Shown: positions 4,788-61,082 of the stretch, piece by piece | Position numbering within the stretch: the first letter of the stretch is position 1 | Layout of the letters: every line of letters begins with the position of its first letter | Made by a program: the position numbers and the translations under genes | The notes under the pieces: model-generated | Databases searched by the model: none | The model's input: only the letters and a program-made list of their open reading frames with translations | Told to the model about the DNA's origin: nothing | Origin: Candidatus Binatia bacterium | GTDB lineage: Bacteria; Verrucomicrobiota; Verrucomicrobiia; Limisphaerales; UBA8199 | Length of the DNA stretch: 64,000 nt | NCBI GenBank assembly: GCA_035566895.1 | Contig: DATMQA010000088.1 | Location: 1 to 64,000 of the forward strand | Direction: 5' to 3'

Positions 4788-6788
4788 ATGAAGAACAGGT
4801 CGTTTCTTGGCCCAGCTCTGGCGGTGCTGTGCCTCCTCGCCGGTCCAGGACGGGAGGTTCAAGCCGCGCCGGCTCCCAGCGACCAGGCGGCGCAACCCGG
4901 GACCTTCTTCAAAAGCTCCAAGCCATACACGCGCTGGTGGTGGTTCGCCTCCGAGATCAGGAAAGAAGACCTCGACGCGCAGTTGGAATGGCTAAAGGAT
5001 AACAATTTCGGCGGCGTCGAGATTGCCTGGCTCTACCCGCCTCGGCCCAAGGTCTGGGCCAAGCTGTTCAGCCAGTTGAGTCCCGAGGAAAAGCAGCGCC
5101 GGACCCAGGCCGCCAAGTGGCTCAGCCCCGAGTGGTCGGCGCTCGTCGCCTACGCCAAACAGAAGGCCGACAGCCTGGGACTCGGCTGCGACTTCACCTT
5201 CGGCAGCGGGTGGCCATTTGGCGATACCGGCGTCACGAAAGACGAATCGGTGCAAATATACGGCAAGCCGGACTTTGAACAACGCATCGAAAGGATCTCC
5301 TGGGAGCTGCCCGCCAAACCGCTCGTCTTGAACCATCTCGACCATCGGGCCTTCGCGCACTATGCCCAGCGGATTGGCCAAGCGCTGGCCCCTGCCCTGG
5401 CGGGCTCGCGCAGCGGCCTGTTCTGCGACTCGTGGGAGGTCGAGACGCACGGCTTGTGGACGCGCGGCTTCGGCGAGGCGTTCAAAAAGAAATTCGGCTA
5501 CCATGTGGAGCCCTTCATGAGCCGCCTCTACGACCGCGATAGCGGCGACGTCCGCTACGACTACATGAAGCTGCTGTCGGATTACGTCATCGAGGAGTTC
5601 TACCAGCCCTTCGCGCGGACCAGCCACGAGCTAGGGGCGTTCTCTCGCGTGCAAGCCCACGGTTCGCCGACCGACCTCATCAGGGCCTATGCCTTGTTTG
5701 ACGTGCCGGAAACCGAGGCGATGCTTTTCGAGCCGCCGTTCGGCAGGATCGCGGCCTCGGCCGCCGCCCTGGCCTCGCGCAGGGAAGTCAGCGCGGAGAC
5801 GTTTACCTGCTTGTACGGATACGCCCGCGAGCACCACGAGGAAGAACAGACGGCCGACCTCAAGCTCGTCGCCGACGCCATGTTCGCCAACGGGGTGAAT
5901 CAAATCGTCTGGCATGGCACGCCGCTTAGCTACAAGGACGCCGGGCACGACAGCGAATTCTACGCCACCGTGCATGTCGGGCGCGAAGGCGCGCTGGCCA
6001 AGGACCTGGCGGCCTTCAACGCCTACATGGAAAAGGTCTCCGAGTTCATGAAGCGGGGCAGGACCTTCTCGGATATCGCGGTGTACCTGCCGTTGGAGGA
6101 TTCCTGGGTGACGGGGGAATATCCGAAAGGACTGCAAATACCCTGGGGCGCATCGGATGCCTTCGAACTGCGCGACGCCCGCTTTCCGGACGAGTTGAGG
6201 GGGTATCATCCGTTGTGGATCAACCATGAGTTTTTGAAACGCGGGGCGATGGAGGGCCGCCGCCTGCGCGTCGCAGACCTGACTTTTTCGATGCTCTATG
6301 TGGATGCTTCCTATCTGGACCTGGAAACGCTCGGCACCATCTTGCAGGTTGCCAAGGCGGGACTGCCGCTCTGTCTGAAGTGCGCACCGAAACAGGCCGG
6401 CCGCATCAAGTCAAATGCGTTCGCTGCACAGCTCAAGAAGCTTCGCTCACTTGCGAACGTCTCTTCCGACCTCGGAACGGTCGTCGCCAGCAAGCCGCTG
6501 GTTGCCGGCGAGGATCTCCCGGATTACTGGGCCCGGGTGGATAAGGGCGAGGTTATCATCTTTTTTGCCCACCCGATGACGCGAGACCTCCGGCTGCCCC
6601 TGCGCTTCGGACAGTCGTTCACAGACCAGGAGCTGACGCGCGATGTGACCCTGGCGGCCGCCGGACGCTCGCTGCCGCTCAAGCTGGTATTCAAGCCGTA
6701 CCAATCGCTCTTACTTAAGCTGGATAAAGGGGGGCGTGCCGAGTTCCAGGACATCCCGTACCAACCTCCACCGGCAGTGCCTTATTGA
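4788..6788 (+). CDS. Secreted putative glycoside hydrolase (signal peptide; GH106/alpha-L-rhamnosidase-like N-terminal 'YTRWWW...GGVEI' signature)
   Basis: Signal peptide MKNRSFLGPALAVLCLLAGPGREVQA. 666-aa ORF with strong GC3 bias. Family assignment is by memory of the RWWW motif only. Confidence 0.6.
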   Translation: MKNRSFLGPALAVLCLLAGPGREVQAAPAPSDQAAQPGTFFKSSKPYTRWWWFASEIRKEDLDAQLEWLKDNNFGGVEIAWLYPPRPKVWAKLFSQLSPEEKQRRTQAAKWLSPEWSALVAYAKQKADSLGLGCDFTFGSGWPFGDTGVTKDESVQIYGKPDFEQRIERISWELPAKPLVLNHLDHRAFAHYAQRIGQALAPALAGSRSGLFCDSWEVETHGLWTRGFGEAFKKKFGYHVEPFMSRLYDRDSGDVRYDYMKLLSDYVIEEFYQPFARTSHELGAFSRVQAHGSPTDLIRAYALFDVPETEAMLFEPPFGRIAASAAALASRREVSAETFTCLYGYAREHHEEEQTADLKLVADAMFANGVNQIVWHGTPLSYKDAGHDSEFYATVHVGREGALAKDLAAFNAYMEKVSEFMKRGRTFSDIAVYLPLEDSWVTGEYPKGLQIPWGASDAFELRDARFPDELRGYHPLWINHEFLKRGAMEGRRLRVADLTFSMLYVDASYLDLETLGTILQVAKAGLPLCLKCAPKQAGRIKSNAFAAQLKKLRSLANVSSDLGTVVASKPLVAGEDLPDYWARVDKGEVIIFFAHPMTRDLRLPLRFGQSFTDQELTRDVTLAAAGRSLPLKLVFKPYQSLLLKLDKGGRAEFQDIPYQPPPAVPY

Positions 6789-13964: not shown

Positions 13965-16900
13965 CTACGGCTCTGCGGTGATGGCCACGAGGAAGGGCTG
14001 GCCTCGAGTCGGTTTGTCCGACACAAAGTCGAACTGGCGTATGGGCACGTTTGGGAAGGGGTTTTCCCAGATAGTTTTGAACAGGCGGATGGCGTGGCCA
14101 CCGCGCCGGGCTGCTGGATTACTGCCGGCCCAGGCCAGGACGAAGCTCATGGGTTGCTCGTTGGGTTGAGTCCACCAATCGGCCATGTCTTTGCCGGTGA
14201 CGATCGGCAGTTCGACCTGGCGGCCATCGGCATAATGGAAGATGTAACTGCCAAGTTCGTCACCCGGACGGGCGCCGGCAGCGAGGATAGCGGCGTGCAG
14301 GAAATGCAGGTGCCGGCACTGCCGGCGGATCGGAATGTCCAGCACGTGGCTGGGATATGCCAGGCCGTTGGGGGCGCTCACCCCGATCTGGATCAGGCCG
14401 CGAACATCAAACTCAACCCCGCCGAATTTCTGCACGCCTCGCCGTAGTTCAGACAAGTTATTTTCCGCCGCTTTTGCGCTATGCCAGCTCTCGGTCAGCG
14501 GCGCGTTGTAATAGTCGGTCAGGTCGATCAAATTTGCGGCGGTGTCTGGGTCGCGGGGCGGAATGGTTTGTGCCAGTTCTTCCTTGCTGAAGGGACCTGC
14601 ATCCAGTTGCAGTACTGCCGGCCCGGTGGGCGGAGCATCGTCGGCGGCAGGAAACGGCGGGAGGCCCCAGTCCAGGTTCAACTTCATGAGTTCTTCCCCA
14701 ATGAAGCGCAAATCCCAAACATCGACCTGGCCGCTCCACTCGAAGGCGGCGAGCTTGGCGCCATCGGGACTGAAGCTGAGGCAACCGACGTGCGCGACCG
14801 TGGGCACTCGCAAAGTGGCCACCGGCTCACAGGTTGGGACCTTGAGAAGTTGAATCTCATAGGTCGCATGAACTGCCGCGAGCAGGCGGCCATCGGGGCT
14901 GAACGCCAGCGGATTGATTTCGGAGACCCGGTCGCCAGCCACGGATTGCGGCGAGGCTTCCCACGAGCCGGTTCTCCAAAGCTTCAACACAGTCATGTCG
15001 GCGGCGGCCAGCCAATGGCCATCAGGACTGAAGGCAACAAAAGCTGTGCCCCTGGCGGGCAGGCTGCGGATGAGTTGGCCGGTCGATACGTCGTACACCT
15101 TGACGCCTGTGCCCTTCCAGGTGCCGGTGGCAGCCCAGCGGCCGCCGGGATCAAAGGCGACGAATTGAGCGCCCGGATGGCCGCGCAGCTTGAGTATATT
15201 GGTCGGATTGTCCAAGTCCAACAGCAGTGGCTCATCCGTAACTTCCCTCGAAGCGAGGATCTTTTTGCCGTCGCGATCCAGCGCTGAGTAGCGAAACAGT
15301 TGATGGGCCATCAGGATTTGCGGGGCTCCGACGCGGAGGAACGAGCCGCGGGCCGTGGACTGGACCTCAAGGGGCCACCGGTAAAGGCCATCCGAAGTGC
15401 TCCCCAGAATGCCCAGCCCGCCATAGGTTTGAAAATGCGCCGAGCGGCAGGTGGCGGTGGGGATCAGACCGATTTGCTTGCCGGCGATCAGATCCCAGAA
15501 CCCTATCCCGCTGACCGTGCTGACGGCCACGAGGCGCCCATCTGGAGAGAAGTCCGCGCTCCACGGCCTGGGAGTTTCCGCAGGGCCAACGAGCCGCCGA
15601 TAACCGGTGCTATGAGCCACTTCGAGCAGCTTCGTGGTTTCACCTTCAACTGCGCACGCCAGTGTCCGGTCATCCGGACTGAAATGGAGTTCCGCGTCTT
15701 GGCTCTCGTACTCCACCAATTGCCGGCCCCTCGCGACATCCCACAGGCGCAGCGTATTGTCCCAACTCCCGCTGGCCAGCAAGTCGCCCTGCTGCGAAAA
15801 GGCTAGGGCCGTCAACCGCGCCTCATGGCCTGCCAGGCGAGCCTGCAGGCGCCCGGTCTGCGCCTCCCAAACCTCAATCTGGCCATCGAGTCGGCCGGTT
15901 GCCAGCAGAGCCCCATCGTGGCTCCAGGCCAGGAAACTCAGCTTGCCTGGCGATAGCAGGCTGGTGATGAGCTGGCCAGAGGCCAACTCCCAGATCCGCA
16001 CCGTCGAGCCGCCAAACTCCAGACCCGCCAGCCGCGTGCCGTCGGGGCTGACCCGCAGCAGACCGAGCTTGCCCTCGACGCGTAACCGCTTCAGGTCTTT
16101 CCCCGACTCAATCTCCTTAACCGAGACAGTGTCATCCGGATTGATGACCAATATCTCCTGGCCGTCGGGACTGAAATCCGGGTAGGCGCTACTGGCGAGG
16201 TCGAGCGCCAAGGCACCGCGACGGGTGAGGTCCCAAACCCGGCAACGCCACCCTCCGTTGGTGGTCAGGCAGGAAGCGGCCAGATAGCGACTGCGGGGGT
16301 CAAACCGGCGGACGATGAGCCCATTGGCAATATCACTGACGTCTTTCACGGGCAGGAAGTTTACCTCCTGGTCGTCCGCGACGCGCCGCACACTGAAGCC
16401 GGAGAGAGTTCGGTAAGCGTACAATTCGAAGGCGGTATCGAAGCACACGTTTTGAGCAGCCCAATGCGAAGGAAACCGCCAGCGCTTTTCTTCGCGCAAA
16501 TCCGGCAAGCCGAAGGCCGCGACGGCCGCCTCACTCAGGTCGGTCGAACGGTGAATCACTGCTGCCTTGCTGAGCGCTTCGAGACTTTCGAAACGTTGGC
16601 CGGCACGGCCGCTGAACTGCTTGGCGCGCGCTTCGCCCAGCAGAGCGTTGTAAAGGTGCTCTTCGGCTGCCGCCCGCTGTTTGGCTTCGCCGGTTCGAGC
16701 TCGCTCGGCCTCCTCACGCAGGCGGCCTTGTGCTCGCTCGGCCCGCCGCGCCCGGATCGCCTCCCAAGTACTCCCCGTCGTTCCCAGGACCAGCGCCAGG
16801 ACCACGGCGCCGGCGGCCGCAAAAGCAAGTTTGTTCCGGCGAACAAGTTTCTGGAATCGATACAGGTTGCTTGGGGGGCGGGCCACCACGGGTTCACTCT

Positions 16901-18188
16901 TCAAATGCCGCTGCAGGTCCATGGCCAGACCATTGGCGGTTTCATAACGCCGCGTCCGGTCCTTTTCCAGGCACTTCATCACGATCCAGTCCAGGTCCCC
17001 GCGGAGAACATTGATCAGCTCCTTCTTCTCGAGCAGCCGACGCGAGGACGCTCCACTCACCTCGGCTGTTTGGTTTTCGTTCTGTGGCCAGCCCCTCCCT
17101 AATCGGGCGGGCGTCTCGCCCGCGGAGGACTGCAGGCCAGAGGCCGGCGCCACTGATGCAGCGCTTAAGCCATTGGGCTCCGGCTTTGGACCGCGCTTTT
17201 CCCGCTTCGCGGGTTCCGCCCGTGCAAGTTCCAGGGTAAGCCGGGTGGAAGGGCGGAGCGGTTCTTTCTCTCGTATCGTTCGTCGCATCTCATCCAGCCC
17301 GGCCGACAAGAGTTCTTTCGCGTCAAACGGGGTCGTGCCGGTGAGTAATTCGTAGAGCAACACTCCGAGCGAGTAGATATCGGTACGGGTATCCACGTCC
17401 AGTCCCCTCAGTTCGGCCTGTTCCGGGCTCATATAGGCCGGAGTCCCGACGAACTGCTCGAACGACGTGAAGAGTGTTTGATCCGTCAATCGCCCCTCCG
17501 TGGCCTTGGCAATCCCAAAATCGATCACCTTGGGCATGGGCAGGCCGTCGTGAGCGGTCACCAGGACATTCGAGGGCTTGATATCGCGATGAATGATGCC
17601 TTTTTGGTGGGCATGCTGAATCGCCCGGCAGGCCTGCATGAACAGGTGAATCCGTTCCGCGGTCGAAAGATCATTCTCCTCGCAATAGTCGGTTATCTTG
17701 ACCCCCCGCACCAGTTCCATGACAAAGTAAGGCCGTCCGGTGTGGGTCGTGCCGGCGTCGAGAACCTTGGCGATGTTCGGATGGTCCATCAGGGCCAGCG
17801 CTTGGCGTTCCGCTTCGAACCTGGCTACCACCTTCTTGGTGTCCATGCCCAGCTTGATGACCTTGAGCGCCACCCGGCGACGCACAGGCTGCTCCTGTTC
17901 GGCCATATAAACCACACCACAGCCGCCTTCGCCAATTTGCTGGAGCAGTTTGTAATGGCCGATGCGGTCACCTGGCTTTTCTGCAATCAGGCCCCCGACC
18001 GCTTCCTGGCGAGGTTGTTCGGGCAGAATACCTTCACCTGTCTCATGGGCCTGGAGCAAGGCGCGCACGCGCGCCAGCAGGGCGGAGTCCTGGCCGCAAG
18101 CTCCCACCAGAAAGGCCGCGCGTTCATCGGGGCGAAACTCGATGGCCCGACTGAACAGGGCTTCCAGCCGCTCGATATTCGTACTCAT
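13965..18188 (-). CDS. Ser/Thr protein kinase with transmembrane segment and C-terminal WD40 beta-propeller repeats
   Basis: Start at ATG 18188 (MSTNIERLEALF). Kinase motifs HRDIKPSNVLV, DFGIAK, GTPAYMSPE. TM helix LAFAAAGAVVLALVLG. More than 10 WD40-like repeats (LASGSWDNTLRLWD, ...). Lies immediately downstream of an ECF sigma gene. Confidence 0.9.
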   Translation of the reverse strand: MSTNIERLEALFSRAIEFRPDERAAFLVGACGQDSALLARVRALLQAHETGEGILPEQPRQEAVGGLIAEKPGDRIGHYKLLQQIGEGGCGVVYMAEQEQPVRRRVALKVIKLGMDTKKVVARFEAERQALALMDHPNIAKVLDAGTTHTGRPYFVMELVRGVKITDYCEENDLSTAERIHLFMQACRAIQHAHQKGIIHRDIKPSNVLVTAHDGLPMPKVIDFGIAKATEGRLTDQTLFTSFEQFVGTPAYMSPEQAELRGLDVDTRTDIYSLGVLLYELLTGTTPFDAKELLSAGLDEMRRTIREKEPLRPSTRLTLELARAEPAKREKRGPKPEPNGLSAASVAPASGLQSSAGETPARLGRGWPQNENQTAEVSGASSRRLLEKKELINVLRGDLDWIVMKCLEKDRTRRYETANGLAMDLQRHLKSEPVVARPPSNLYRFQKLVRRNKLAFAAAGAVVLALVLGTTGSTWEAIRARRAERAQGRLREEAERARTGEAKQRAAAEEHLYNALLGEARAKQFSGRAGQRFESLEALSKAAVIHRSTDLSEAAVAAFGLPDLREEKRWRFPSHWAAQNVCFDTAFELYAYRTLSGFSVRRVADDQEVNFLPVKDVSDIANGLIVRRFDPRSRYLAASCLTTNGGWRCRVWDLTRRGALALDLASSAYPDFSPDGQEILVINPDDTVSVKEIESGKDLKRLRVEGKLGLLRVSPDGTRLAGLEFGGSTVRIWELASGQLITSLLSPGKLSFLAWSHDGALLATGRLDGQIEVWEAQTGRLQARLAGHEARLTALAFSQQGDLLASGSWDNTLRLWDVARGRQLVEYESQDAELHFSPDDRTLACAVEGETTKLLEVAHSTGYRRLVGPAETPRPWSADFSPDGRLVAVSTVSGIGFWDLIAGKQIGLIPTATCRSAHFQTYGGLGILGSTSDGLYRWPLEVQSTARGSFLRVGAPQILMAHQLFRYSALDRDGKKILASREVTDEPLLLDLDNPTNILKLRGHPGAQFVAFDPGGRWAATGTWKGTGVKVYDVSTGQLIRSLPARGTAFVAFSPDGHWLAAADMTVLKLWRTGSWEASPQSVAGDRVSEINPLAFSPDGRLLAAVHATYEIQLLKVPTCEPVATLRVPTVAHVGCLSFSPDGAKLAAFEWSGQVDVWDLRFIGEELMKLNLDWGLPPFPAADDAPPTGPAVLQLDAGPFSKEELAQTIPPRDPDTAANLIDLTDYYNAPLTESWHSAKAAENNLSELRRGVQKFGGVEFDVRGLIQIGVSAPNGLAYPSHVLDIPIRRQCRHLHFLHAAILAAGARPGDELGSYIFHYADGRQVELPIVTGKDMADWWTQPNEQPMSFVLAWAGSNPAARRGGHAIRLFKTIWENPFPNVPIRQFDFVSDKPTRGQPFLVAITAEP

Positions 18189-18278
18189 TGCTCGCTCGCC
18201 GCTCTCGTGGAGTAGTGCGCTTTTGAGAAGCAAAACGTCTCAGCCGAACCGCAAAAAACCTGTCCGCCCGCGAGAAAT

Positions 18279-21549: not shown

Positions 21550-21699
21550 GTGTCAGCTCTTTCGTTTTGTTTTCGCAATGTTCGCTCCGAGACGGTCTCC
21601 CGGCAACGCCAAATGCGCATCGGGCGAGAAGGGATTCGGGTGTCACGTGGTCAGAGTGAAATGGCATGGAAACATCTCCCGAAAAAAAATTTAGTGTTA

Positions 21700-22215
21700 A
21701 GAAATGTTAAGGAGTGTTAAGAAGTGCTAAGGCCGCGATAGCGGGATGGGGTGGACGGGGCGGCGGCGAGGAGCGGGAAGGTGGCACGGGGAGCTGGGCT
21801 TCATGTTTGCTTGTACGGTTTTCTGTTTTCCGGGCCGCTCGCTGTTGGCGACAGTGGCCTCTACTATGTATTGTGCGACAAAGGTTGTCTGACGGCGGAC
21901 ATGTTTGCTGGTACGAATTTCTGTTTTCGGGGCCGGCCGCAGTTGGCGACACTGCCCTCTACTATATATGGCGCGACGAAAGTAGTCTGACGGCGGACAT
22001 CGGAGCGCCAAGATTGTAGCAGCCGACGCCAGGAGGCTTTGATCTCTCGGCCAATGGACAAAGGATCAGAGCCTCCTGGCGTCTGGCTGCTACGGCAGGG
22101 GGTTAGTTGGCTTTTCCTTCCGGCAGGCGGAGCAGCGGACGAGTGGACTTGGTGAACGCGGAACCGCACCGGACCGAGGCGCGGCAAGGAGATGTGGGGC
22201 CGGTGTGGCGCAGGA
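21700..22215. repeat. Copy A of a ~0.5 kb segmental direct repeat (contains two ~100-bp tandem units at about 21795-22003 and an 80-nt hairpin at 22010-22095)
   Basis: Long blocks are near-identical to 23025-23693 (read by eye). Contains an internal tandem duplication of a ~100-bp unit. Confidence 0.8.
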
Positions 22216-22413
22216 GATCGAGGATCCGGAAGTGAAGATGAGTGTGTGGCGGCGCCGCCGAGCCTCCAAAATTGCCGGGGCCAGCAATGCGGCGGATCGA
22301 CGCGAGCTGCGGGAACACACCGATCTTCCCTTAACTGCGTTGGGCTCCGGCAGCGATTACGCGAGTTTTTTGGATTTCCTGGGCATCCCCTGCGTGAGCC
22401 TCGATTTCGCTGA

Positions 22414-23007
22414 CGAGAGCAACGATGCGGCAGCTCGTGGGCCACAGGTGATGAGTATGTCGGTGCCCTAGGCGACGGGAAGACCAACGGCTATACGAAC
22501 GCCTGGGAGATGGTCGTAGCCAGCGGTGTCACGGCGGTTGCGGCCGGGAGCCGCCATAGTCTGTTCCTCGAATCCGACGGCAGCCTCTGGGGCATGGGCG
22601 ACGGTACCACCACGGACCGGCTCACTCCGGAGCAGATTCTGTCGAGCGGCGTGGTCGCGGTCGCGGCCGGGCATGGGCACAGTCTTTTCCTCAAGTCTGA
22701 CGGCAGCCTTTGGGGGATGGGCGAAAACGGGTTCGGTCAGTTGGGCGACGGCACGTACACGAGCCGTCCGACACCGGTAACGATTGTCCCGCCGCCGCCG
22801 CCCACGATCACTAGCATTAGCCTGGCGGGGACGAATATGGTCATCGTGTGGCCGGCGAACCAGTGCGGTTTCACGTTGCAATGCGCCTCGAATCTGGAGC
22901 CGCAGGTAACTTGGAGCAACGTTTCCGCTGGAGTGGTCGTCAGCAACCAATACGTAGTGACCAATTCCATCTCCGTCCCGCGGATGTTCTATCGGCTGGC
23001 CGAATAG
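22414..23007 (+). pseudogene. RCC1-repeat (regulator of chromosome condensation-like) gene fragment with shared C-terminal '...RMFYRLAE' domain; no in-frame ATG before 22510
   Basis: Frame opens after the TGA at 22411. RCC1 blades 'YVGALGDG...SRHSLFLESDGSLWGMGDG...GHGHSLFLKSDGSLWGMGENGFGQLGDG'. The first ATG (22510) lies inside a repeat blade. Confidence 0.55.
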
Positions 23008-23024
23008 CTGGGAAAAAATTAGTG

Positions 23025-23693
23025 TCAAAAAAGCTTAGAAACCGCTAAAAAGGTTAAAGCTGATGGCGGCTTAATGGATGGGGGCGGCGGCGGGCAGAGC
23101 GGCGAGGCTGCGGCGAGGGAGTGTGGGTGCCCGGGGTGGTATGGAGGGTTGGGCTTTCATCTTTGCTGATACGAATTTCTATCTTCGGGGCTGGCCGCGG
23201 TTGGCGACACTGCCCTCTACTTTATATGGCGCGACGATAGTAGTCTGACGGCGGACAGGGCCGCCGGGATGATATTATCTGCCCAGACTGGAGCACGTTT
23301 TTTATCAGGCCGACGCGGTGGTGCATTGGGAGATGAGCGTTGCTCACCGCGATACCGGCTGGCTCACGCGGACGTTTCATTGCCCTTTTCGTGAGATATG
23401 GTGCACACGGGCGCGCGCTGCACGAAGAGCAAGGACCCGGCCGCATCAATGGTGCGGCGTCCGATCAAAAGGACCATCGAAGCGCCAAGATCGTAGCAGC
23501 CGACGCCAGGAGGCTCTGATCATTTGTTCGATTGACCGAGAGATCAGAGCCTCCTGGCGTCGGCTGCGACGGGAGGGGGGTGGTTGGCTTTTCCTTCCGG
23601 CAGACGGAGCAGGAGGCGAGTGGACCTGGTGAACGCGGAACCGGACCGGGCCGAGGTGCGGCAAGGAGATGTGGGGCCGGGGTGGTTACCGGA
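23025..23693. repeat. Copy B of the segmental direct repeat (one ~100-bp unit, a ~210-bp unique insert, and a perfect-stem hairpin at 23493-23570); it ends exactly at the ggt stop codon
   Basis: Matches 21700-22215. The hairpin GTAGCAGCCGACGCCAGGAGGCTCTGATC-N20-GATCAGAGCCTCCTGGCGTCGGCTGCGAC has a 23-bp perfect core. Confidence 0.8.
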
Positions 23694-25418
23694 TTACCAG
23701 GCGAGCGCAGCACCGTTCGCGCGCGGATCGGCTGCGCTGAGAAAGCCGTGGCCGTCGGGCGCGAGGCCGACTGCTTGCGTCGCCCCAAACCATTTGATCG
23801 GGCGCACGATGTGACCGCGTGTCGCGAGGTCGAACTGGACCGCGGGATTCAGTGCCTCCTCGACCTTCAGTTCGTCCGGCCTCCATTGGTGATGAAATTT
23901 CGGCTGGTTGATCGCGGTCTGAGCATCCATACCCAAATCCAAAACATTGACGATGCTCAACAGCGTTTGACTGATGATGGTAGGGCCGCCCGCCGCACCG
24001 AGCGCCAGGATGGGTTGCCGACCCTTCAGGACGATGGTCGGACTCATGCTGGAGAGCGGACGTTTCCCAGGCGCGATCGCGTTAGCTTCACCGCCAACCA
24101 GGCCAAAGTAATTGGGGACCCCCGGTTGAGCGGAGAAGTCATCCATCTGGTTGTTCATGACGACGCCCGTGCCGGGAATGACGACCTTGGACCCAAAATG
24201 AGTGTTGATGGTGGTGGTCAGCGCTACCCAAGTTCCTCCCGCATCCACGGTTGACAGATGTGTAGTGTGTTTTGAAAACAGGTCGATTTCGGAATCGGAG
24301 GGTGTGCCGTGGCCGTGCACCGGCGTCGCGTGCTTCAAATCGATTCTCGCGGCGCGAGCGCGGGCGTAATCCTTGCTCATGAGACCACGCGGCACTTTGA
24401 CAAAATCCGGATCGCCCAGCCAAAAGGCGCGGTCGGCAAACACCAGCTTCATCGATTCGGCGATGAAGTGGTCTCGGTCGGCCTCCGTGAAGTTCGAAAT
24501 ATTGTGACTTTCCAGCATGTTCAGCGCTTCAAGGATATGGACCCCGCCGGAACTGGGCGGCGGAAACGAAATCACCGTGTAGCCACGATACACGGTGGAG
24601 ACCGGCGCACGCAGCACCGGACGATAACCCTTGAGGTCCGCAGTGGTAACCAGGCCATGATTCTCCTTCATCCACTTTTCCACCGCTTGAGCAAACGGCC
24701 CATCGTAAAACCATTCCAGGCCGTGTTCCGCGATAGCGCGATAGGTTCGCGCGAGGTCGGTTTGCCGCAGGATTTCGCCTTCTCCCCATGGAGTGCCATC
24801 GGGCTTGACAAAAACGGCTCGGGCAGCGGGATACTTCGCCAGGTCGGCGGCGTTTTCTCGAAGGTGCGTGGCGTATTGCTTGTCGATCCGAAAACCCGTC
24901 TCGGCCATTTCAGCGGCAGCCAGAAGATGTTCCTTGAGCGGGATTTTGCCCCAGGATTTCACGGCCAGAGCATACGCGGCCAAGGCGCCAGGCGTAGCGA
25001 TGGCCAACGCACCAGTTTCGCTAAGGCCCGGAATAACTTTGCGTTTGTGCAGCAGGCTTCGTTTGCTCAGATACATGTCGTGCGTGGCGGCAGCGGGGGA
25101 GGTCTCGCGACCATCAACGCAGACGATCTCGCCGCTGGCAAGGCGGACGAGAATGAAACAGCCGCCGCCGATACCTGAATTGTATCCGTTAACGACACCG
25201 AGCGTCAGGGCGGCGGCAATTGCGGCATCGACCGCGTTGCCCCCCTTCTTCATGGCGTCAATGCCGGCCTGGCTGGCAATGCCGTCCACCGTAGCCACCG
25301 CGCCGTGAGGACCTACGGCTGGTTGAGCAGGGGCGCAGAAGGAAAACAAGACTACCAGGACCGCGAGCTCGCGCAGATGTCTGACCGTGCGGGTCATATG
25401 GATTCCATTTGTTTTCAT
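23694..25418 (-). CDS. ggt: Gamma-glutamyltranspeptidase (secreted)
   Basis: The GGT family is conserved throughout (GGGCFILVRL, ...TTHLSTVDAGGTWVALTTTINTHFGS autocatalytic Thr region). Signal peptide present. Alternative start at 25397. Confidence 0.9.
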   Translation of the reverse strand: MKTNGIHMTRTVRHLRELAVLVVLFSFCAPAQPAVGPHGAVATVDGIASQAGIDAMKKGGNAVDAAIAAALTLGVVNGYNSGIGGGCFILVRLASGEIVCVDGRETSPAAATHDMYLSKRSLLHKRKVIPGLSETGALAIATPGALAAYALAVKSWGKIPLKEHLLAAAEMAETGFRIDKQYATHLRENAADLAKYPAARAVFVKPDGTPWGEGEILRQTDLARTYRAIAEHGLEWFYDGPFAQAVEKWMKENHGLVTTADLKGYRPVLRAPVSTVYRGYTVISFPPPSSGGVHILEALNMLESHNISNFTEADRDHFIAESMKLVFADRAFWLGDPDFVKVPRGLMSKDYARARAARIDLKHATPVHGHGTPSDSEIDLFSKHTTHLSTVDAGGTWVALTTTINTHFGSKVVIPGTGVVMNNQMDDFSAQPGVPNYFGLVGGEANAIAPGKRPLSSMSPTIVLKGRQPILALGAAGGPTIISQTLLSIVNVLDLGMDAQTAINQPKFHHQWRPDELKVEEALNPAVQFDLATRGHIVRPIKWFGATQAVGLAPDGHGFLSAADPRANGAALAW

Positions 25419-25620: not shown

Positions 25621-25697
25621 TTGGTCCCAATGGCGCGTCCGGCAGGACTTGAACCTGCAACCTTCTGATCCGAAGTCAGAAGCTCTATCCAATTGAG
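25621..25697 (-). tRNA. tRNA-Arg (anticodon TCG)
   Basis: Reverse complement GCGTCCGTAGCTCAATTGGATAGAGCTTCTGACTTCGGATCAGAAGGTTGCAGGTTCAAGTCCTGCCGGACGCGCCA folds as a cloverleaf with anticodon loop CTTCGGA. CCA is encoded. Confidence 0.9.
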
Positions 25698-26178
25698 CTA
25701 CGGACGCACGATTGTCGTTGAATGCTACGCTATCCTGACCAAGCACGAAGTCAACGCTGCATCGTTTCGGAGGCGTGACCAGTGACAAGTGGCGAGTGAG
25801 AGGCTTCTCGCTCGCGCGGTGCTTCTCCCTAAGTGCCTCGCGCCGGGAAGGTTGTACCTGGCTTTCTTGACAACCCGGCGAGTTATGGGATTGGTGGTAC
25901 AGCAGTTGAAGCAGCCTAAGTTGGCTTTCCTTCCTGAAGGCCAATGCGGGGGACCCAAAGTCCTCGAACAGGTGTTTGGGGAAGGGGCGAAAGGCCGCGG
26001 GTAACCGCGGTTAAGGTCACTTCCTGGACCGAGCCCGTCAGCTAACCTCGCCGGCAATGGGAAGGGCGATCCTCTAGGGTCCCGCTCGGGCGGGTTCCCA
26101 CGTTCACCCAGTCAAGAAAGCGCGCTGCGCCTTGCGCGGCGATACCGCAGCGGTGTGCAGCCACATCGGAGAATCGGT

Positions 26179-28026
26179 ATGAATACAATGATTCTATTTG
26201 GAACACTCGGGCCCGTGGAACTCGGGCTGGCGGTAATCGTGATGCTGGGTTTGCTATCGATCGGACCGCTGGTGCTCGGCGCGGTATTAATCCGCGAGCG
26301 CCAGGTCGGGATCGTGGTGAAGAAGTTTGGCGGCCGGGGGTTACCGCCGGGGCGATTGGTTGCCCTGGCCGGCGAATCCGGCTACCAGGCCGACACCCTC
26401 GCGCCGGGCCTGCACTTCGGATATTTCCGGTGGCAATACCGGATTCTGAAGATGCCGGTGACGGTCGTGTCGCAAGGCGAGATCGCGCTGGTGGTGGCCG
26501 CTGATGGGGCTTCGATTCCATCGGAACGCATCCTGGGCAAAGTGGTCGATTGCGACAACTTCCAGGACGCGCGGAAGTTCCTGGTCAACGGCGGCGAGAA
26601 AGGGCGCCAATTGGGCGTCCTCACCGCGGGCACGTACCGGATCAACCGGGCGTTGTTCACGGTGATCACCTCGGACACGGCGCAGGACCACGGCATGCTG
26701 GGCTCGCAACTGCGGTTGCACCAGATCGAGCCGGACATGGTGGGGATTGTGACCGCCATGGACGGCCAGCCGATTGAGGCCGGCGAAATCGCAGGGCCGG
26801 TGATTGCCGGCCACCAAAACTTCCAGAACACGCAAGCGTTTCTGGACGGCGGCGGCCGGCGCGGATTGCAGGACCAAATCCTGTTGTCCGGCACCTGGAA
26901 CCTCAATCCGTGGTTCGTGCAGGTCGAGCAGGTGCCGATGGTGCAGATCCCGATCGGCTACGTCGGCGTCGTCATCTCGTATGTGGGCAAAGCCCACGTC
27001 GATGTGAGCGGCATCGAGTTCAAGCACGGCGACCTGGTCGAGACCGGCCACAAAGGTGTGTGGGTGACCCCGCTTTACCCGGGGAAGCATCCGATCAACA
27101 CCCGCGTGATGAAAGTCGAGCTGGTACCGACGACCAACATCGTGCTCAACTGGGCGGCCCGCACCGAGACGCATAAGTACGACGAGAAACTCTCGTCCAT
27201 CACGGTGCGGTCGAAGGACGGGTTCGCCTTCAGCCTGGACGTGTCGCAGATCATCCACGTCGGCGCGTTGGACGCGCCGAAGGTGATCTCGCGCGTCGGC
27301 TCGATGCAAAACCTGGTCGATCACGTCTTGCAGCCGATTGTGGGAAATTACTTCCGCAATTCGGCGCAGGACTACACGGTGCTCGACTTCCTCGGGGCGC
27401 GCAGCCAGCGCCAGGTGGAAGCGGCCGAGCACATCCGGGCGGCGTTGTCCGCCTATGATGTGCAGGCCATCGACACGCTGATCGGCGACATCAATCCGCC
27501 GGCGCAACTGATGCAAACGCAGACGGACCGGAAAATCGCCGAAGAACAGCGCAAAACCTACGAGGTACAGGAAGCGGCGCAGGTGCAGCGCCAGCAACTC
27601 GTGCGACAGACCTCGCTGGCGGATATCCAGCATGAGGTGGTCGGCGCCGAGCAAGGCGTGAGCATCGCCGAACTGCACGCGAACGCGCAGGTGAAACAGG
27701 CGACCGGTGAAGCCGAGTCAGTGCGCTTACGGGCGCACGGCGAGGCGGAGGCCATTCGGGCCACCGGCCAGGCCAAGGCCGAGGCCTACCGGGCCGGCGT
27801 TGAAGCGCTGGGCCCGCAGGCCTACACGACGATGCAGCTCATGCAAATCGTCGGCGACCGACAGGTACGGATCGTGCCGGACGTTGCCGTCAACGGCGCC
27901 AACGCGAGTCCTGGTCTCGTGGACGGGCTGCTCGGACTGATGGTCCGCAGCCAGGCCAACGGGGAAGGGCGCAGCGCGAAGGCCGAAGTGCCAGGCGCCG
28001 AAGCGGTGCTGCCGCGCGCGAACTAA
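26179..28026 (+). CDS. Flotillin / SPFH (band-7) domain membrane protein (YqiK-like)
   Basis: N-terminal TM helix, SPFH core, and a long Ala/Glu/Gln-rich coiled coil (EAEAIRATGQAKAEAYRAGVEALG). Confidence 0.85.
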   Translation: MNTMILFGTLGPVELGLAVIVMLGLLSIGPLVLGAVLIRERQVGIVVKKFGGRGLPPGRLVALAGESGYQADTLAPGLHFGYFRWQYRILKMPVTVVSQGEIALVVAADGASIPSERILGKVVDCDNFQDARKFLVNGGEKGRQLGVLTAGTYRINRALFTVITSDTAQDHGMLGSQLRLHQIEPDMVGIVTAMDGQPIEAGEIAGPVIAGHQNFQNTQAFLDGGGRRGLQDQILLSGTWNLNPWFVQVEQVPMVQIPIGYVGVVISYVGKAHVDVSGIEFKHGDLVETGHKGVWVTPLYPGKHPINTRVMKVELVPTTNIVLNWAARTETHKYDEKLSSITVRSKDGFAFSLDVSQIIHVGALDAPKVISRVGSMQNLVDHVLQPIVGNYFRNSAQDYTVLDFLGARSQRQVEAAEHIRAALSAYDVQAIDTLIGDINPPAQLMQTQTDRKIAEEQRKTYEVQEAAQVQRQQLVRQTSLADIQHEVVGAEQGVSIAELHANAQVKQATGEAESVRLRAHGEAEAIRATGQAKAEAYRAGVEALGPQAYTTMQLMQIVGDRQVRIVPDVAVNGANASPGLVDGLLGLMVRSQANGEGRSAKAEVPGAEAVLPRAN

Positions 28027-30015: not shown

Positions 30016-30037
30016 GGTAAATCCACCGCTCCAGCCA

Positions 30038-30135
30038 AAGAGTTAAATGGGTCAAAAGAGTTAACTGAGTTAAATGAGGGACACGGCTTTTGAGAACCCA
30101 CAAGAAATTTGCGCATGCTGCGCAAACTTTGAAGG
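30038..30135. repeat. Intergenic element, copy A: 9-10-bp GAGTTAAAT/GTTAAAAGG-type tandem units plus conserved tail containing palindrome TTTGCGCA-TGC-TGCGCAAA
   Basis: Shares unit and tail with 31166-31250 and 31993-32105. Confidence 0.75.
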
Positions 30136-31075: not shown

Positions 31076-31165
31076 AGCGGCTCCTGGTTAAACTGTACGG
31101 AGTACCATTGTCCTTTTGCGCCAGTTGTCAAGTGCTGGGTGGCTCCGGAGCTGACGCTGCAACCA

Positions 31166-31250
31166 ATGAGTTAAATGGGCTAACTGAGTTAAATGAGGAA
31201 CACGGCACCGGCCCGTTTGCGGATGTTGCTGCGCCCGCAGGGCGCTCTTC
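31166..31250. repeat. Intergenic element, copy B (GAGTTAAATGGGCTAACTGAGTTAAATGAGGAACACGGC...)
   Basis: About 90% identical to copy A over the array. Overlaps the annotated 5' end of ORF 31193..31957, so the true start is probably downstream. Confidence 0.7.
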
Positions 31251-31957: not shown

Positions 31958-31992
31958 CCACGGATGAACACAGCGCGGCAAAGCCGCAACCA

Positions 31993-32105
31993 AAGAGTTA
32001 AAAAGGTTAAAAAGGTTAGAAAAGTTAAATGGGTTAAAAGAGTTAGATCCGGGACGCACGTTTGCGCACGCACAAGAAGTTTGATAAAGCTGCGCAAACT
32101 AAAAG
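31993..32105. repeat. Intergenic element, copy C (AGTTAAAAAGGTTAAAAAGGTTAGAAAAGTTAAATGGGTTAAAAGAGTTAGATCC plus tail with TTTGCGCA...TGCGCAAACT)
   Basis: Same unit and tail as copies A and B. Confidence 0.75.
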
Positions 32106-38191: not shown

Positions 38192-38224
38192 AGCATACAT
38201 CGATACGCCGGCCTGCGGACTGAC

Positions 38225-38347
38225 GCGCGAAGCGTTTGGAGTGCGTGCGCTCTGCGCCGCTTTGTTATGTTCGAGCTGAGTGGTTACATTTAGCTGCTCG
38301 AGAGTCCGAGAACGGCGCAGAGCGCACGCACTCCAAACGCTTCGCGC
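38225..38347. repeat. Perfect 35-bp inverted repeat (stem) with 53-nt loop, followed by T-rich tract
   Basis: Left arm GCGCGAAGCGTTTGGAGTGCGTGCGCTCTGCGCCG (38225-38259). Exact reverse complement at 38313-38347. Confidence 0.9.
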
Positions 38348-38425
38348 CTCTCGTTCAATGATTTTGCGCTTTTTTCTGTAACAATTGCCCCCTCTCCTGC
38401 GTATTACCTGCAGGGTCATCGTGTT

Positions 38426-39652: not shown

Positions 39653-39678
39653 GGCGGATGATGGATGGTGGATGATGG

Positions 39679-41112
39679 ATGATGAACACGGGCAATAACA
39701 TTGATTCCTCTGCACTCCCTCTCGATGCCGCGGCTGCACCTATCGACTCCTTGTCGCCCGCCATCGAGCCTCCATCATCCATCATCTACCATCCACCATC
39801 CTCCGCCGCTCTGCGGCGGCTCCGTCGCGCGTTGCTCTTCCCGGTAAAACTCTTTTGGGGAATGATCTTCTGCCAGGGATTGCTCGGAAGCATTTTCGTG
39901 GTCGGCTGGAGCTACCGCCTGGCGCAACGATTCGCCCTGAAATACTGGTGGTCGCACAGTTCACGCGCGCAGCCGAACACCACGTTCGCCGATTTTCTGG
40001 CCGGCAGCGAGCGGACCAGAGACCACCGCCACTGGCCTAATTGGTTCCTCCAGCAGGATTTCGCCGAGGCGCTCCGCCGGCAGCCTGGCGTGAGCGCGGG
40101 AAGGTATGTTTTTTCAGTGGTACGGGCGTTTACCCACGGCCTGTGGTTGAATTTCTGGATGGGGTTGCGCGCCATCGCCAATACCTGGGCGCTGACGCTA
40201 CCTGCCTGTATTTTCTGGTGGTTCGGCTGGTATGACGGCTGGAACAATTCGTTTAACAAAGGCTACGAGCAGGCCGCAGTGGGCCCGCTGGTTTCTTTGC
40301 TGGGCATCCTGTTGTTCATCGCGGCTATGTTTTATGTCCCGCTCGCCCAAGCCCGCCAGGCCGTCACCGGCGATTGGCGCGCGTTCTTTGAGTTCCGGCT
40401 GGTCTGGAATTTAGCGCGCTTGCGCTGGGTCTCGTGCGTGGGCTTGGCGCTGCTTTATTCTCTGCTGGCGCTTCCGCTCAATATCCTGAAAACCTCGCCC
40501 ATGTTCTGGATGCAAAAACATCCGGAGCTGGTTTATGTTTCCGACGCGCTGCTTCTCAAGATGCTCAACGACTATTTCTTTTGGTGCGCCCTGCTGATGT
40601 TGCCGGCCTATGTGCTGCTGCGTGTGCTCGCGGCCCGGGTTTATGCCTCAGCCATAATGGCCTCGGTCCAATCCGGCAATATTCAGCCCGCCGCGCTCGC
40701 CGTTTATGAACGCGAAACCCTCGACCGTCTGGGACTCCTGGAGACCCGCCCGTCTCGCGAACGCCACGTCTTCGTCCGCTTTCTGGCCTGGACCGGCACG
40801 CGGGTGGGACGCGTGCTCGGCGGCGCGGCGCTGTTCTTTACCTGGTTCGGCTTTGTTGCCCAGATTTACATCGCCGAGTTCTTCAATTACCACGGCGGCC
40901 TAGGCTGGCTGAACCAGCCGCTCGTCCAGCTCCCCTGGTTCCATTACTTGCCGTCGCGGTTGAAAACCCCGCTGGGAGAGGTTTTCTTCGTGCTCCTGGC
41001 CTGGTTCGTTGCCTTGCTGATCTGGTCGGTTTTAAGCACGATTGCCAGAAGCACGAGCAGGCAGGCCAGCACACCGCCGCCAACGAACAGCTTGAACCAG
41101 AGGTCGGTCTGA
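39679..41112 (+). CDS. Polytopic membrane protein of unknown function (low-complexity N-terminus; start uncertain)
   Basis: About 10 hydrophobic helices. The N-terminal 40 codons overlap an imperfect inverted repeat of GATGATGG motifs. Confidence 0.65.
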   Translation: MMNTGNNIDSSALPLDAAAAPIDSLSPAIEPPSSIIYHPPSSAALRRLRRALLFPVKLFWGMIFCQGLLGSIFVVGWSYRLAQRFALKYWWSHSSRAQPNTTFADFLAGSERTRDHRHWPNWFLQQDFAEALRRQPGVSAGRYVFSVVRAFTHGLWLNFWMGLRAIANTWALTLPACIFWWFGWYDGWNNSFNKGYEQAAVGPLVSLLGILLFIAAMFYVPLAQARQAVTGDWRAFFEFRLVWNLARLRWVSCVGLALLYSLLALPLNILKTSPMFWMQKHPELVYVSDALLLKMLNDYFFWCALLMLPAYVLLRVLAARVYASAIMASVQSGNIQPAALAVYERETLDRLGLLETRPSRERHVFVRFLAWTGTRVGRVLGGAALFFTWFGFVAQIYIAEFFNYHGGLGWLNQPLVQLPWFHYLPSRLKTPLGEVFFVLLAWFVALLIWSVLSTIARSTSRQASTPPPTNSLNQRSV

Positions 41113-45661: not shown

Positions 45662-46471
45662 TCAAAAATTCCTCGCCGCGAGCACTTCTCTAGCCGGCTT
45701 CCGGTCCCCCGTGCAACTAATCCGCCTCGGTCCGTCCAAAAAACGCAGTTTGAAGCCGAGCTTCTCGTAAAGCGTCAGAATCCGCTCCGTGGCCTGGTTG
45801 GACAAGATCACCGGCCCTTTATGTCGCGCCAGCCATTCCGCCGCCCGCACCTGGTCCTCCCAACCGAATGGTTCCTTCGCGTACCGAGTGAATTCCACGT
45901 CGAACGGCGGGTCGGCATAAATAAAATCGTCCGCTTCCAACCGCGTGTTCTCAAAATCGACACTCGTGAACTCCCAATTCGAAAATACCTGTTGGTAAGC
46001 GCTGAAATCCCGAATGTAGTTGATGCTCTTGTAACGCCCAAAAGGCACATTGAATTCGCCGCTGGCGTTGAACCGGCACAGACCGTTGAAACAGGTCCGA
46101 TTCAGGTAATAAAACAGCGCTGCCGCCTCCGCGCAATCAGCCTTGCCTTCGCGCAGCAGTTCATTGAACCGCTTTCGATGCGCATAATAGAGCTCCCGAT
46201 CATTCTCCATCCAGAGCGTGATCTGCATTCCTCGCTTCAGCCACCCGTAGAAGTGCATAACGTGCGGATTAGCATCATTGAGCAAGGCGCGTTCGGGGAC
46301 CAGGCCGAGCGTGATCGCCAATGCGCCGCAAAACGGCTCAACTAGGCGGCGCTCCGAGAATGGCTGCCAGAGCGGTATAAGCTGTGGCACCAGCCAGCGC
46401 TTTCCGCCCGCCCATTTCAGAGGCGGCGAAAGCGGGACGGCCAACGGCAATGGGGTTTCGGTTTCGGACAC
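45662..46471 (-). CDS. DNA N6-adenine methyltransferase, D12 class (Dam-like), apparently stand-alone
   Basis: 'LKWAGGKRWL' motif, 'EPFCGALAI' (FxGxG-like motif I), 'YADPPFDVEF' (DPPF catalytic motif IV). Confidence 0.85.
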   Translation of the reverse strand: MSETETPLPLAVPLSPPLKWAGGKRWLVPQLIPLWQPFSERRLVEPFCGALAITLGLVPERALLNDANPHVMHFYGWLKRGMQITLWMENDRELYYAHRKRFNELLREGKADCAEAAALFYYLNRTCFNGLCRFNASGEFNVPFGRYKSINYIRDFSAYQQVFSNWEFTSVDFENTRLEADDFIYADPPFDVEFTRYAKEPFGWEDQVRAAEWLARHKGPVILSNQATERILTLYEKLGFKLRFLDGPRRISCTGDRKPAREVLAARNF

Positions 46472-47015: not shown

Positions 47016-47278
47016 TTTCTCAAACTAGCGGAAACGACAAGGCGGTGCAATGACCAGAATCGACACGATGGAATACCGTGTTAAAATTGCTCTAATCAAT
47101 ACTTAAAGATGCCAGAAAATTTGAGCCTCCTTGCGTCGGCTGCTACGATGGGAATGATTCCTTGCGCGCTCTTAGACCTGGGGCGTGCATGAGAACCGCG
47201 TGGATGATGCGTGAAACCACTCGAATAATTTCACGCATCACGCATCACTCATCACCACCCCATCACGCATCAGTACCG

Positions 47279-48430: not shown

Positions 48431-48440
48431 CTTCTTTCTC

Positions 48441-55175: not shown

Positions 55176-55554
55176 TCAGGGCCAGAGCCGCTGGTCGATT
55201 CGATGCCCGGTTCGCTCGATTCTGCGTCGAAAAGTCGCTTAGAGCGTGTCTTAAAATTGGGGCCGCGTTGTTCTGCCCGGAAAACCGCTCAACTTTCCGC
55301 CTCCTCACGTCGGCGGCTACAATTTCCAAACACGCTCTTAAACACGCTTTGCGCTTCAAAAAACACGCTCTCTCGCTCTCGTGACGTTCGTGCGCGTGAG
55401 ACTTGATAGCTTTATGATAGACTTTCGCGCATCTTTTCAGAACAGAACAAGAGCGACTAACAGAGCATAACGGCGCACTACGCAAAAAGATCGCAATGCG
55501 AGCATAGCTCAGTAAATACGAGTGAAAAACGCTCTTCTCTCAGCAGTTTTGGAG

Positions 55555-61022: not shown

Positions 61023-61082
61023 GCAGGAGGTTGGGGCTATGGGGTGTCCGCCCCAGCGCCGCGCGCTTGGGGGCGGCGGAAG

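Follow-up and report, generated by a model that had tools for sequence, protein, structure and literature searches.

Hairpins in a Verrucomicrobiota contig are probably REP doublets of a RAYT-associated repeat family

Introduction

A long intergenic hairpin that lies behind a gamma-glutamyltransferase (GGT) gene and recurs in the same contig raises the question of whether it belongs to that gene or to a family of dispersed elements, and if the latter, of what kind. In the window, that is, the whole 64-kb stretch of DNA that was analyzed, a sequence-only reading had described two such hairpins and a half-copy, and had interpreted them as a REP/MITE-like mobile element. To our knowledge, REP/RAYT systems have been studied almost exclusively in Proteobacteria; the studies of GTAG-tagged REPs and REPINs with RAYT are said to include that of Bertels and Rainey in 2011. 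The REP sequences of Proteobacteria differ between species or genera. The analysis reported here makes it very likely that the window hairpins are REP doublets (REPINs) of a RAYT-associated family, and the best explanation of the evidence is that this REP family is common to orders of Verrucomicrobiota. The two halves of a hairpin are referred to below as arms or REPs.

Results

Geometry and folding of the window hairpins

The two hairpins, designated A and B, are listed with the other features of the window in Table 1. The long stem and 20-nt loop ascribed to hairpin B were confirmed. Its arms (23492-23521 and 23542-23571) are 30 nt each, 97% complementary and 20 nt apart. The 24-nt REP cores are separated by 30 nt, within which TGATC (23517-23521) pairs with GATCA (23542-23546), leaving the 20-nt unpaired loop. 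The foot of the right REP of B is GTCG, not GTAG. Hairpin B is located 123 nt beyond the stop codon of the GGT gene (23694-25418, minus strand). Hairpin A was also present with the 19-nt loop described, although the coordinates first assigned to it, 22022-22087, clip the structure, which extends from 22016 to 22093. Its arms (22016-22044 and 22064-22093) have a single T.G mismatch (22039/22069) and a 1-nt bulge, T22084, in the right REP, and the TGATC/GATCA pairing is found on the loop-proximal side here as well.

RNA folding of the window hairpins gave energies of -64 to -75 kcal/mol on either strand, with z scores of -8.5 to -11.3. For hairpin B the values were -75.2 kcal/mol on the plus strand (z -10.2) and -64.9 kcal/mol on the minus strand (z -11.3), and for hairpin A the z scores of the two strands were -8.5 and -8.7; none of 200 shuffles folded as well as either hairpin. 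No T-run follows the hairpins on either strand, the sequence downstream of B being GGGAGGGGGG on the plus strand and GATCTTGGCG on the minus strand. A terminator scan called no intrinsic (Rho-independent) terminator at hairpin A or B. When the window hairpins were compared with Rfam 15, only sub-threshold microRNA-precursor models were returned, far under the gathering score. The passing Rfam matches over the whole window were two tRNAs and one c-di-AMP riboswitch. The view that the hairpin is a dispersed palindromic element and not a gene-specific terminator was borne out.

Table 1. Repeat features of the 64-kb window
Feature	Coordinates	Strand	Details
REP-derived coding remnant	17030..17053	+	diverged arm in a 1422-aa Ser/Thr kinase gene (13965-18233, -)
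Duplicated segment, copy 1	21685..22208	+	9-nt tandem array, two 100-nt units (21802-21901, 21900-21999), REPIN A, 124-nt tail (22085-22208)
REPIN A (REP doublet)	22016..22093	.	left REP 22016-22039 (+) = GTAGCAGCCGACGCCAGGAGGCTT; right REP 22069-22093 (-)
Duplicated segment, copy 2	23013..23685	+	9-nt tandem array, one 100-nt unit (23158-23257), ~217 nt extra, REPIN B, 124-nt tail (23562-23685)
REPIN B (REP doublet)	23493..23570	.	left REP 23493-23516 (+) = GTAGCAGCCGACGCCAGGAGGCTC; right REP 23547-23570 (-)
Solo REP	47123..47146	-	reads GTAGCAGCCGACGCAAGGAGGCTC on - strand; no partner arm
Solo REP, variant subfamily	55297..55320	-	GTAGCCGCCGACGTGAGGAGGCGG on - strand; also given as CCGCCTCCTCACGTCGGCGGCTAC

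A local duplication contains both hairpins

Hairpins A and B were found to lie within a direct repeat of about 0.5-0.7 kb, the copies of which are 84-92% identical. Copy 2 takes up nearly all of the gap between the stop codon of an RCC1-repeat gene fragment (23007) and that of the GGT gene (23694), and the region between A and B contains gene fragments. Since both hairpins are embedded in one direct repeat, they are not independent occurrences, and their present number is the outcome of a local segmental duplication, not of two transpositions. Occurrence at three loci had been the original argument for a mobile element. Further copies do exist, but with A and B reduced to one segmental duplication the argument is weaker than claimed, and because the second copy is local in origin, evidence for a dispersed element must come from other loci.

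The hairpin portion was the sole part of the duplicated segment that matched other genomes; the flanking 100-nt unit and the 124-nt tail had no match in 1.6 Mb of related DNA. The possibility was considered that the 100-nt units are template and variable repeats of a DGR, and this was ruled out because the differences between the copies are not adenine-specific. Integron attC sites were also rejected, as no RYYYAAC/GTTRRRY core sites were seen in the sequence around the hairpins.

Other arms in the window

The 21-mer core of the arm had five matches in the window at up to 3 mismatches, compared with 0.00 expected from 100 shuffles. Five REP sites are recognized in the window (A, B, 47123, 55297 and 17030). 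The copy near 47123, described earlier as a right arm only, was located at 47123-47146 (extended by GAT), and the left arm is indeed absent. It is flanked by the 3' end of an esterase-like ORF (47279-48496, minus strand) and the start of an Rrf2-like ORF (46596-47015, minus strand), and RNA folding of this solo REP gave no fold (z about 0).

Two of the sites were missed by the sequence-only reading. The solo REP at 55297-55320 has the stem CGCC/GGCG in place of AGCC/GGCT, a change that is compensated inside the arm, and obtained a structural score of 16/16. The other, at 17030-17053, is the remnant in the kinase gene, where it encodes ...GASSRRLLE.... The kinases of two related loci (L022 and L047) have a full REP doublet at the alignment position of this remnant (VAADVRRL...ASSRRLL), and in a third related kinase (L055) the insert is absent at that loop. 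A left-arm remnant was sought in the window kinase gene, and none could be shown convincingly. The GTAG foot was present on four of the five window arms that passed a structural scan, the fifth being the right arm of B with its GTCG; the scan leaves out the bulged right arm of A and the kinase remnant, which are too altered to pass. The JAJYHY MAG (isolate DBS2-1.bin101; loci L037, L038 and L052) carries a GACGCCAGG variant in common with the window.

Distribution in genomes and metagenomes

A search for further copies of the arm, the check proposed along with the first description, found many of them. An exact 20-mer of the arm occurred at at least 108 loci in GTDB contigs (one genome per species), nearly all of them from Verrucomicrobiota. 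A metagenome scan, whose pattern was specified at no more than the outer 11 nt of each arm, gave at least 120 loci, with 117 unique hairpins among the matches listed. The genome and metagenome collections together thus hold at least 228 loci. Among the matches listed for the 20-mer, the Verrucomicrobiota labels were Opitutae/Opitutales, Verrucomicrobiales, Limisphaerales and Chthoniobacterales (MAGs), and a few hairpin-bearing contigs were labelled Acidobacteriota, Binatia or Bifidobacterium. A few matches from other phyla are without a GTAG foot or partner arm and look like chance. The arm was also present on ten viral contigs in IMG/VR. The samples were seeded by sequence patterns, and their composition is therefore biased.

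At most of the genome loci, the match lay in one half of a hairpin that had the same arms, the loop being variable in both length and sequence and often containing tandem repeats of 6-8 nt. Inverted doublets that form a hairpin are consequently represented by A and B in the window, by 77 hairpins at the genome loci and by the 117 unique hairpins from metagenomes, the latter two counts being of the matches listed. About 12 extra hairpins were found in approximately 750 kb around the seeds. In two relatives whose GGT is about 72% identical, no arms were present in 43 kb.

A literature search with the arm sequence retrieved no relevant paper, and the literature on RAYT and Verrucomicrobia yielded only Di Nocera 2013 (PMC3733652) as relevant. 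The REP family appears to be undescribed so far, the kind of element being already known.

Anatomy and covariation of the arm

It is the 24-nt arm, rather than the 29-bp stem, that forms the functional unit. The REP consensus is 5'-GTAG-C-AGCC-GA-C-GTRA-G-GA-GGCT-C, which comprises the GTAG foot, a stem of 4-5 bp (AGCC/GGCT), tandem G.A/A.G, and a C-G or G-C pair that closes a GNRA-like tetraloop. Two types of arm were distinguished in the metagenome sample, type 1 with GTAGCAGCCGA-C-GT[R]A-G-GAGGCTC and type 2 with GTAGCAGCCGA-G-GT[N]A-C-GAGGCTC. In the 234 arms among the matches listed, positions 12/17 are C-G in 161, G-C in 63 and some other combination in 10. Of these arms, 200 have a GTAA or GTGA loop, and 216 have GA/GA on the two sides of the loop. 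Type 1 is combined with type 2 in 46 of the 117 doublets among the matches listed, which places G.G and C.C mismatches across the arms at positions 12 and 17. Mismatch between the arms is tolerated and the pairs within the arm are kept, indicating that pairing is conserved within each arm.

Covariation was evaluated on 77 distinct arm sequences collected with a pattern that left all stem positions free. Pairing within the arm was found in 79.9% of cells versus 65.1 +/- 1.4 in shuffles, and the covariation score was 0.336 versus 0.122 for shuffled arms; neither value was reached in 500 shuffles, and slid controls did not exceed 0.063. The compensated stem variants include AGCC/GGCT, AGAC/GTCT, AGTC/GACT, CGCC/GGCG and TGCC/GGCA. 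The same change in both arms of a doublet would preserve the long hairpin unaided, so the compensating second change points to a small hairpin within the arm. The nearest-neighbour energy of a single arm as DNA was -2.1 to -5.4 kcal/mol, no better than shuffles. Because the energies predict only weak folding of a single arm, the case for the intra-arm hairpin rests on the covariation, part of which may reflect few evolutionary events. An apparent strand asymmetry (GACGC versus GACGT arms, with apparent C.A and G.U pairs) was considered as a sign of RNA and rejected as an artefact of a search pattern that forced C; in the unbiased metagenome sample, 113 of the 117 hairpins among the matches listed have T-A at that position.

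A putative RayT-type gene is bracketed by the arms in related loci

One of the related contigs (L203), which came from the metagenome sample, encodes, at 5139-5702 on the minus strand, a 187-aa ORF with HLH and YIAENP motifs. The protein matched the NCBIfam model NF047646, REP_Tyr_transpos (REP-associated tyrosine transposase), with an E value of 1.6e-12 over profile positions 9-145 of 146 and a score of 47.5 bits, which is under the curated cut-off of 80. There was no match to Pfam at E 0.01. The best match in the PDB was 4ER8, E. coli TnpA-REP (E 0.0044), and the alignment included both the HUH and the Y motif. A type-2/type-2 doublet is situated 10 nt past the stop codon of this gene, and two head-to-head arms begin 14 nt before its start. 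Homologs of the protein numbered 1355 at E <= 1e-10, most of them 185-205 aa in length. Many carry the JGI name 'REP element-mobilizing transposase RayT', and the ones with NCBI names are listed as hypothetical proteins from Opitutae, Opitutaceae and Limisphaerales. Many homologs are found on short contigs (about 1-2 kb), a length that would be expected were assemblies to break at the repeats on either side.

Four homologs were taken from long contigs and analyzed with the first. At all five loci examined (L203, L244, L245, L246 and L247), arms occur within 6-90 nt on both sides of the putative transposase gene. The last of these has 11 tandem doublets upstream, in which type 1 alternates with type 2 in a BIME-like manner. 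Moreover, the arm variant changes with the RAYT locus, the stems being AGCC, AGAC/AGTC or TGCC/CGAC.

The search for an associated RAYT or IS200-like transposase that had been suggested at the outset therefore led to an arm-flanked gene in relatives and to none in the window. Neither tblastn with E. coli RayT nor a motif regex found a RAYT gene in the 64-kb window or in the first 108 genome loci, and all-against-all clustering of the neighbouring ORFs gave no recurrent partner gene. The transposase link is thus indirect for the window genome, which may still carry a RAYT. Judging from sequence similarity, the best explanation is that the cognate enzyme belongs to a clade of putative transposases, HUH/Y1 proteins of the RayT / TnpA-REP type that are about 190 aa in length and have REPs on both sides of their genes (REPtrons). 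As the repeat directly flanks a putative RayT-type gene in related genomes, it would represent a new family of a known kind of repeat, one that is either selfish or domesticated, and not a terminator specific to one gene.

Insertion sites and in-frame copies

Target-site duplications, the other check that had been proposed, were sought in 115 hairpins and none was found; direct repeats of 4-8 nt in the flanks were at chance level. A relative whose GGT gene is about 94-95% identical at the DNA level has no hairpin 3' of GGT, and an SDR gene converges on it 12 nt past the stop codon. In the same relative, a variant hairpin with a GAGAC stem is present 5' of GGT and ends 1 nt short of the point where the sequence starts to resemble the window. 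That hairpins are placed differently around near-identical GGT genes fits turnover. Since both flanks of GGT differ in this relative, no clean empty site could be defined.

A considerable part of the copies is located within genes. Among the 91 hairpins flanked on each side by 1 kb or more of sequence, 28 (approximately 31%) lay inside an ORF of 300 aa or more that runs through the hairpin without interruption, and the longest such ORF was 2148 aa. The in-frame hairpins encode, for example, RSSRRKEA...QSLLTSAAT or VAADVRRL...ASSRRLL. The uvrA gene of L080 contains two doublets, both of which are in-frame insertions when compared with E. coli UvrA.

Discussion

The possibility was considered that the doublet is an RNA element selected by the host, which would act in 3' untranslated regions or operon spacers as a stabilizer, a terminator or a processing site for a phylum-wide RNA-binding factor, the link to the transposase being secondary. 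The hairpin RNAs are extremely stable (-64 to -75 kcal/mol, z to -11), B follows the GGT stop codon by 123 nt, and the conservation of the 24-mer across orders suggests constraint. A crude count of contexts in the genome matches listed also placed 30 of the 77 copies between tandem or convergent genes and 4 between divergent genes. However, the hairpins lack a T-run on either strand and any terminator-like site, and they resemble no Rfam family beyond the sub-threshold microRNA-hairpin noise. Among the hairpins in the matches listed, 41% of the doublets mismatch between the arms and keep the pairing within the arm; solo arms are common, and 31% of the copies are in frame within ORFs. Furthermore, the direction of the wobble-compatible strand relative to that of the gene shows no clear bias (12 vs. 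5 in tandem contexts, 13 vs. 12 within genes), and the asymmetry itself is a pattern artefact. A host-selected RNA element is therefore improbable as the primary explanation.

The long, well-conserved inverted termini, the short variable interior and the dispersal over many genomes would also be features of a MITE, a deletion derivative of a DDE-transposase IS with terminal inverted repeats of 24-30 bp that is mobilized in trans. This explanation is very hard to reconcile with the absence of target-site duplications in the 115 hairpins, and the 108 genome loci listed include neither a full-length element with such ends nor a recurrent transposase neighbour. Pairs of arms separated by longer distances enclose no transposase (ffh in L083 and an ordinary gene in L078; in L080 the arms are in and around uvrA). 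The arms flank a putative Y1/HUH gene instead, each with a GTAG foot and its own covarying stem-loop, and the doublets mix two types of arm. Hence the MITE half of the original proposal is abandoned, and the REP half is retained in the form of a REP/REPIN-like element. The hairpins might, on the other hand, be a purely local feature, part of a duplicated intergenic segment such as a promoter or UTR with no wider meaning. The direct repeat that holds A and B (0.5-0.7 kb, 84-92% identity) and the failure of the 100-nt unit and the 124-nt tail to match anything in 1.6 Mb of related DNA agree with this, but the hairpin portion alone matches at least 228 loci elsewhere, and independent arms are found at 47123, 55297 and 17030 in the same window. 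As a full explanation the local reading, which retains hardly any probability, is refuted, and it holds only for the origin of copy A or B. Given that there is no T-run or RNA family, that arms are mismatched, that neither a target-site duplication nor a parent IS was found and that the loci are many, all three alternatives fit less well than REP doublets.

GTAG-tagged REPs and REPINs with a RAYT (TnpA-REP) are known as the Y and Z REPs and BIMEs of E. coli and the REPINs of Pseudomonas (Nunvar 2010, PMC2817692; Messing 2012, PMC3479197; Quentin 2018, PMC6006769), and a GTAG foot on an imperfect palindrome, arranged in inverted doublets of two subtypes, is the anatomy of REPs, REPINs and BIMEs (PMC2817692, PMC3733652, PMC6006769). 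Like the REPs of E. coli and Pseudomonas, the window family consists of imperfect palindromes with GTAG at the 5' foot, which form inverted doublets and, in arrays, alternate between two subtypes (the array of L247 resembling a BIME). It shares with them a putative tyrosine-transposase gene that has its own REPs on both sides (REPtron), the lack of target-site duplication, and the occurrence of solo REPs in addition to doublets. Unlike those REPs, it has a short and interrupted stem (4-5 bp, tandem G.A, one pair and a GNRA-like loop), so that a doublet forms a much more stable hairpin than a single REP does; for most GTAG families the stems are 6-9 bp (PMC3733652). The window family also differs in the near-identity of the 24-mer across orders of the phylum, in the loops that often hold tandem repeats of 6-8 nt, and in the Verrucomicrobiota RAYT clade, which falls under the NCBIfam cut-off and has no Pfam match.

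The closest counterparts by taxon are the GTAG-17 to GTAG-20 repeats of Opitutus terrae (Di Nocera et al. 2013, PMC3733652), which belong to the same phylum, are GTAG-tagged and abundant, and have many in-frame gene copies, both uvrA genes carrying double insertions. The peptides encoded by the O. terrae elements are VGPALAAG, GTGVPPV or HGRHARAT (PMC3733652). Identity of the window family with GTAG-17 to GTAG-20 was rejected because the sequences differ, and both 'RRLL' and GTAGCAGC are absent from the supplementary tables of PMC3733652. The 'double-foot' REPs of TnpA-Y1 subclass 2.4 (Quentin et al. 2018, PMC6006769) likewise have 5' GT[AG]G and 3' C[TC]AC on one long hairpin, and in-frame gene insertion has been reported for them too (PMC6006769). 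In the window family, by contrast, each half keeps a complete REP with its own loop, and the spacer between the halves is variable. Verrucomicrobia are not mentioned in Quentin et al. 2018 (PMC6006769). Rickettsia palindromic elements (RPEs), in the brief account of them in PMC3733652, are similar in that the palindromes are often in frame in coding genes and add short peptides, and are unlike the window family in carrying a CGTC tag and no dedicated transposase. Their sequence is unrelated and they come from a different phylum.

A REPIN consists of two 24-nt REPs that are inverted tail-to-tail, with the GTAG feet outermost. In the mechanism proposed by analogy with E. coli TnpA-REP (PMC3479197, PMC8266576, PMC6006769), the enzyme may recognize the folded REP and the GTAG foot on single-stranded DNA. 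It would then cleave and rejoin the DNA, such that REPs and doublets could be excised, copied and inserted without target duplication. The solo arms at 47123 and 55297 are perhaps decayed or half-deleted doublets. Once inserted, the doublets would be mostly neutral passengers. In 3' untranslated regions, as with B behind GGT, they can fold into highly stable RNA hairpins, which may protect transcripts or terminate them, and a putative secondary effect of this type on neighbouring genes, for instance the stabilization at B of the GGT transcript's 3' end, is possible. Doublets inserted in frame add loops of 20-30 residues, and the kinase remnant at 17030 is one such case.

The 24-nt REP is almost unchanged across orders, and the RAYT has diverged to approximately 55-70% identity. 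Furthermore, doublets have repeatedly been kept in frame in UvrA and in ECF-linked Ser/Thr kinases. The near-identity of the 24-mer throughout the phylum exceeds the norm for REP families and could reflect a host-level constraint beyond the selfish-element model. That the REP/RAYT pair is an ancient, mainly vertical Verrucomicrobiota system under host-level selection, that is, a domesticated single-stranded DNA editing system with a conserved cellular role, is conceivable, and is considered rather unlikely.

The REP-doublet interpretation defines a repeat sequence family, and the matching transposase clade, for a whole and mostly uncultured phylum, and provides GTAGCAGCCGA[C/G]GTNA[G/C]GAGGCTC as a signature for annotation. 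The repeats may account for a class of contig breaks and short contigs in Verrucomicrobiota MAGs, and the peptides that they encode flag protein inserts of 20-30 residues (SSRR.EA...SLLTSAAT or VAADVRRL...ASSRRLL) as repeat-derived. Because the REP is so unusually well conserved, the family lends itself well to testing whether RAYT/REPIN systems are selfish or domesticated. Two points of the family are unusual: the 24-mer is nearly identical from order to order, and a high proportion of the copies are in frame.

REP arrays and exact REP arms in other loci

An array of REP doublets was found in L247, a locus retrieved from public sequence data for comparison. Eleven doublets lie head-to-tail at positions 1761-2677 with a period of 80-90 nt, and the type-1 arms (+) and type-2 arms (-), the two REP subtypes, are in strict alternation. 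The array, which resembles the BIMEs of E. coli, is located directly upstream of a RayT-like gene.

An exact REP arm was also present in ten contigs classed as viral in IMG/VR (L234-L243). They may represent prophage regions or host fragments, or their viral classification may be wrong. In another comparison locus, L080, which belongs to a MAG, the uvrA gene has an in-frame stop at about position 3995, at the site of a zinc-finger cysteine in E. coli UvrA; the stop could reflect a sequencing error or a pseudogene.

Surroundings of the REP elements in the window

The interval between the two REP doublets (22192-23007) was found to contain two gene fragments, a C-terminal RCC1-repeat fragment and a short ORF that, judged by its sequence, encodes an M28/PSMA-like peptide (LGSGSDYASFLDFLGIP). 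Taken together with the local duplication, the gene fragments suggest that this is a spot prone to rearrangement. A search of the other loci for the 100-nt unit gave no match, and a promoter scan of the window made no call for it. Near the solo REP at 47123, the translated ORF at 45662-46471 (-) has a DPPF motif and resembles N6-adenine DNA methyltransferases of the Dam type.

Structured elements and repeats in the window
Feature	Position	Strand	Description
100-nt unit	21802-21901; 21900-21999; 23158-23257		three copies, 85-92% identity
RCC1-repeat fragment	22510-23007		C-terminal
tRNA genes (two)	25634-25707; 55558-55640	-	
c-di-AMP riboswitch	25903-26071	+	57.2 bits
Long hairpin	38222-38350		55-nt arms, 84% complementarity, 19-nt loop
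Inverted repeat	39653-39804		GGATGAT-type heptamer runs; 32-nt arms, 91%
Paired palindrome	55835-55938		AAACCGTTGAAACGGTTT motif; 45-nt arms, 71%
9-nt tandem arrays	21690-21735; 23020-23058; 30028-30092		
9-nt tandem arrays, further sites	31165-31206; 31983-32065; 61070-61234		

Other palindromes, structured RNAs and tandem arrays

The long hairpin has no sequence kinship with the REP family and gave a single 29-nt match, in L072. The paired palindrome, which overlaps the start of ffh/SRP54 (55927-57336, +), has an 80% match at the start of L103, and a heptamer array resembling that of the inverted repeat occurs in L049. The c-di-AMP riboswitch is located upstream of a 623-aa ORF (26155-28026).

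A 9-nt unit, GTTAAAnnG-like, is tandemly arrayed at several intergenic sites of the window. Similar tandem repeats of 6-8 nt fill many of the REP-doublet loops of other genomes.
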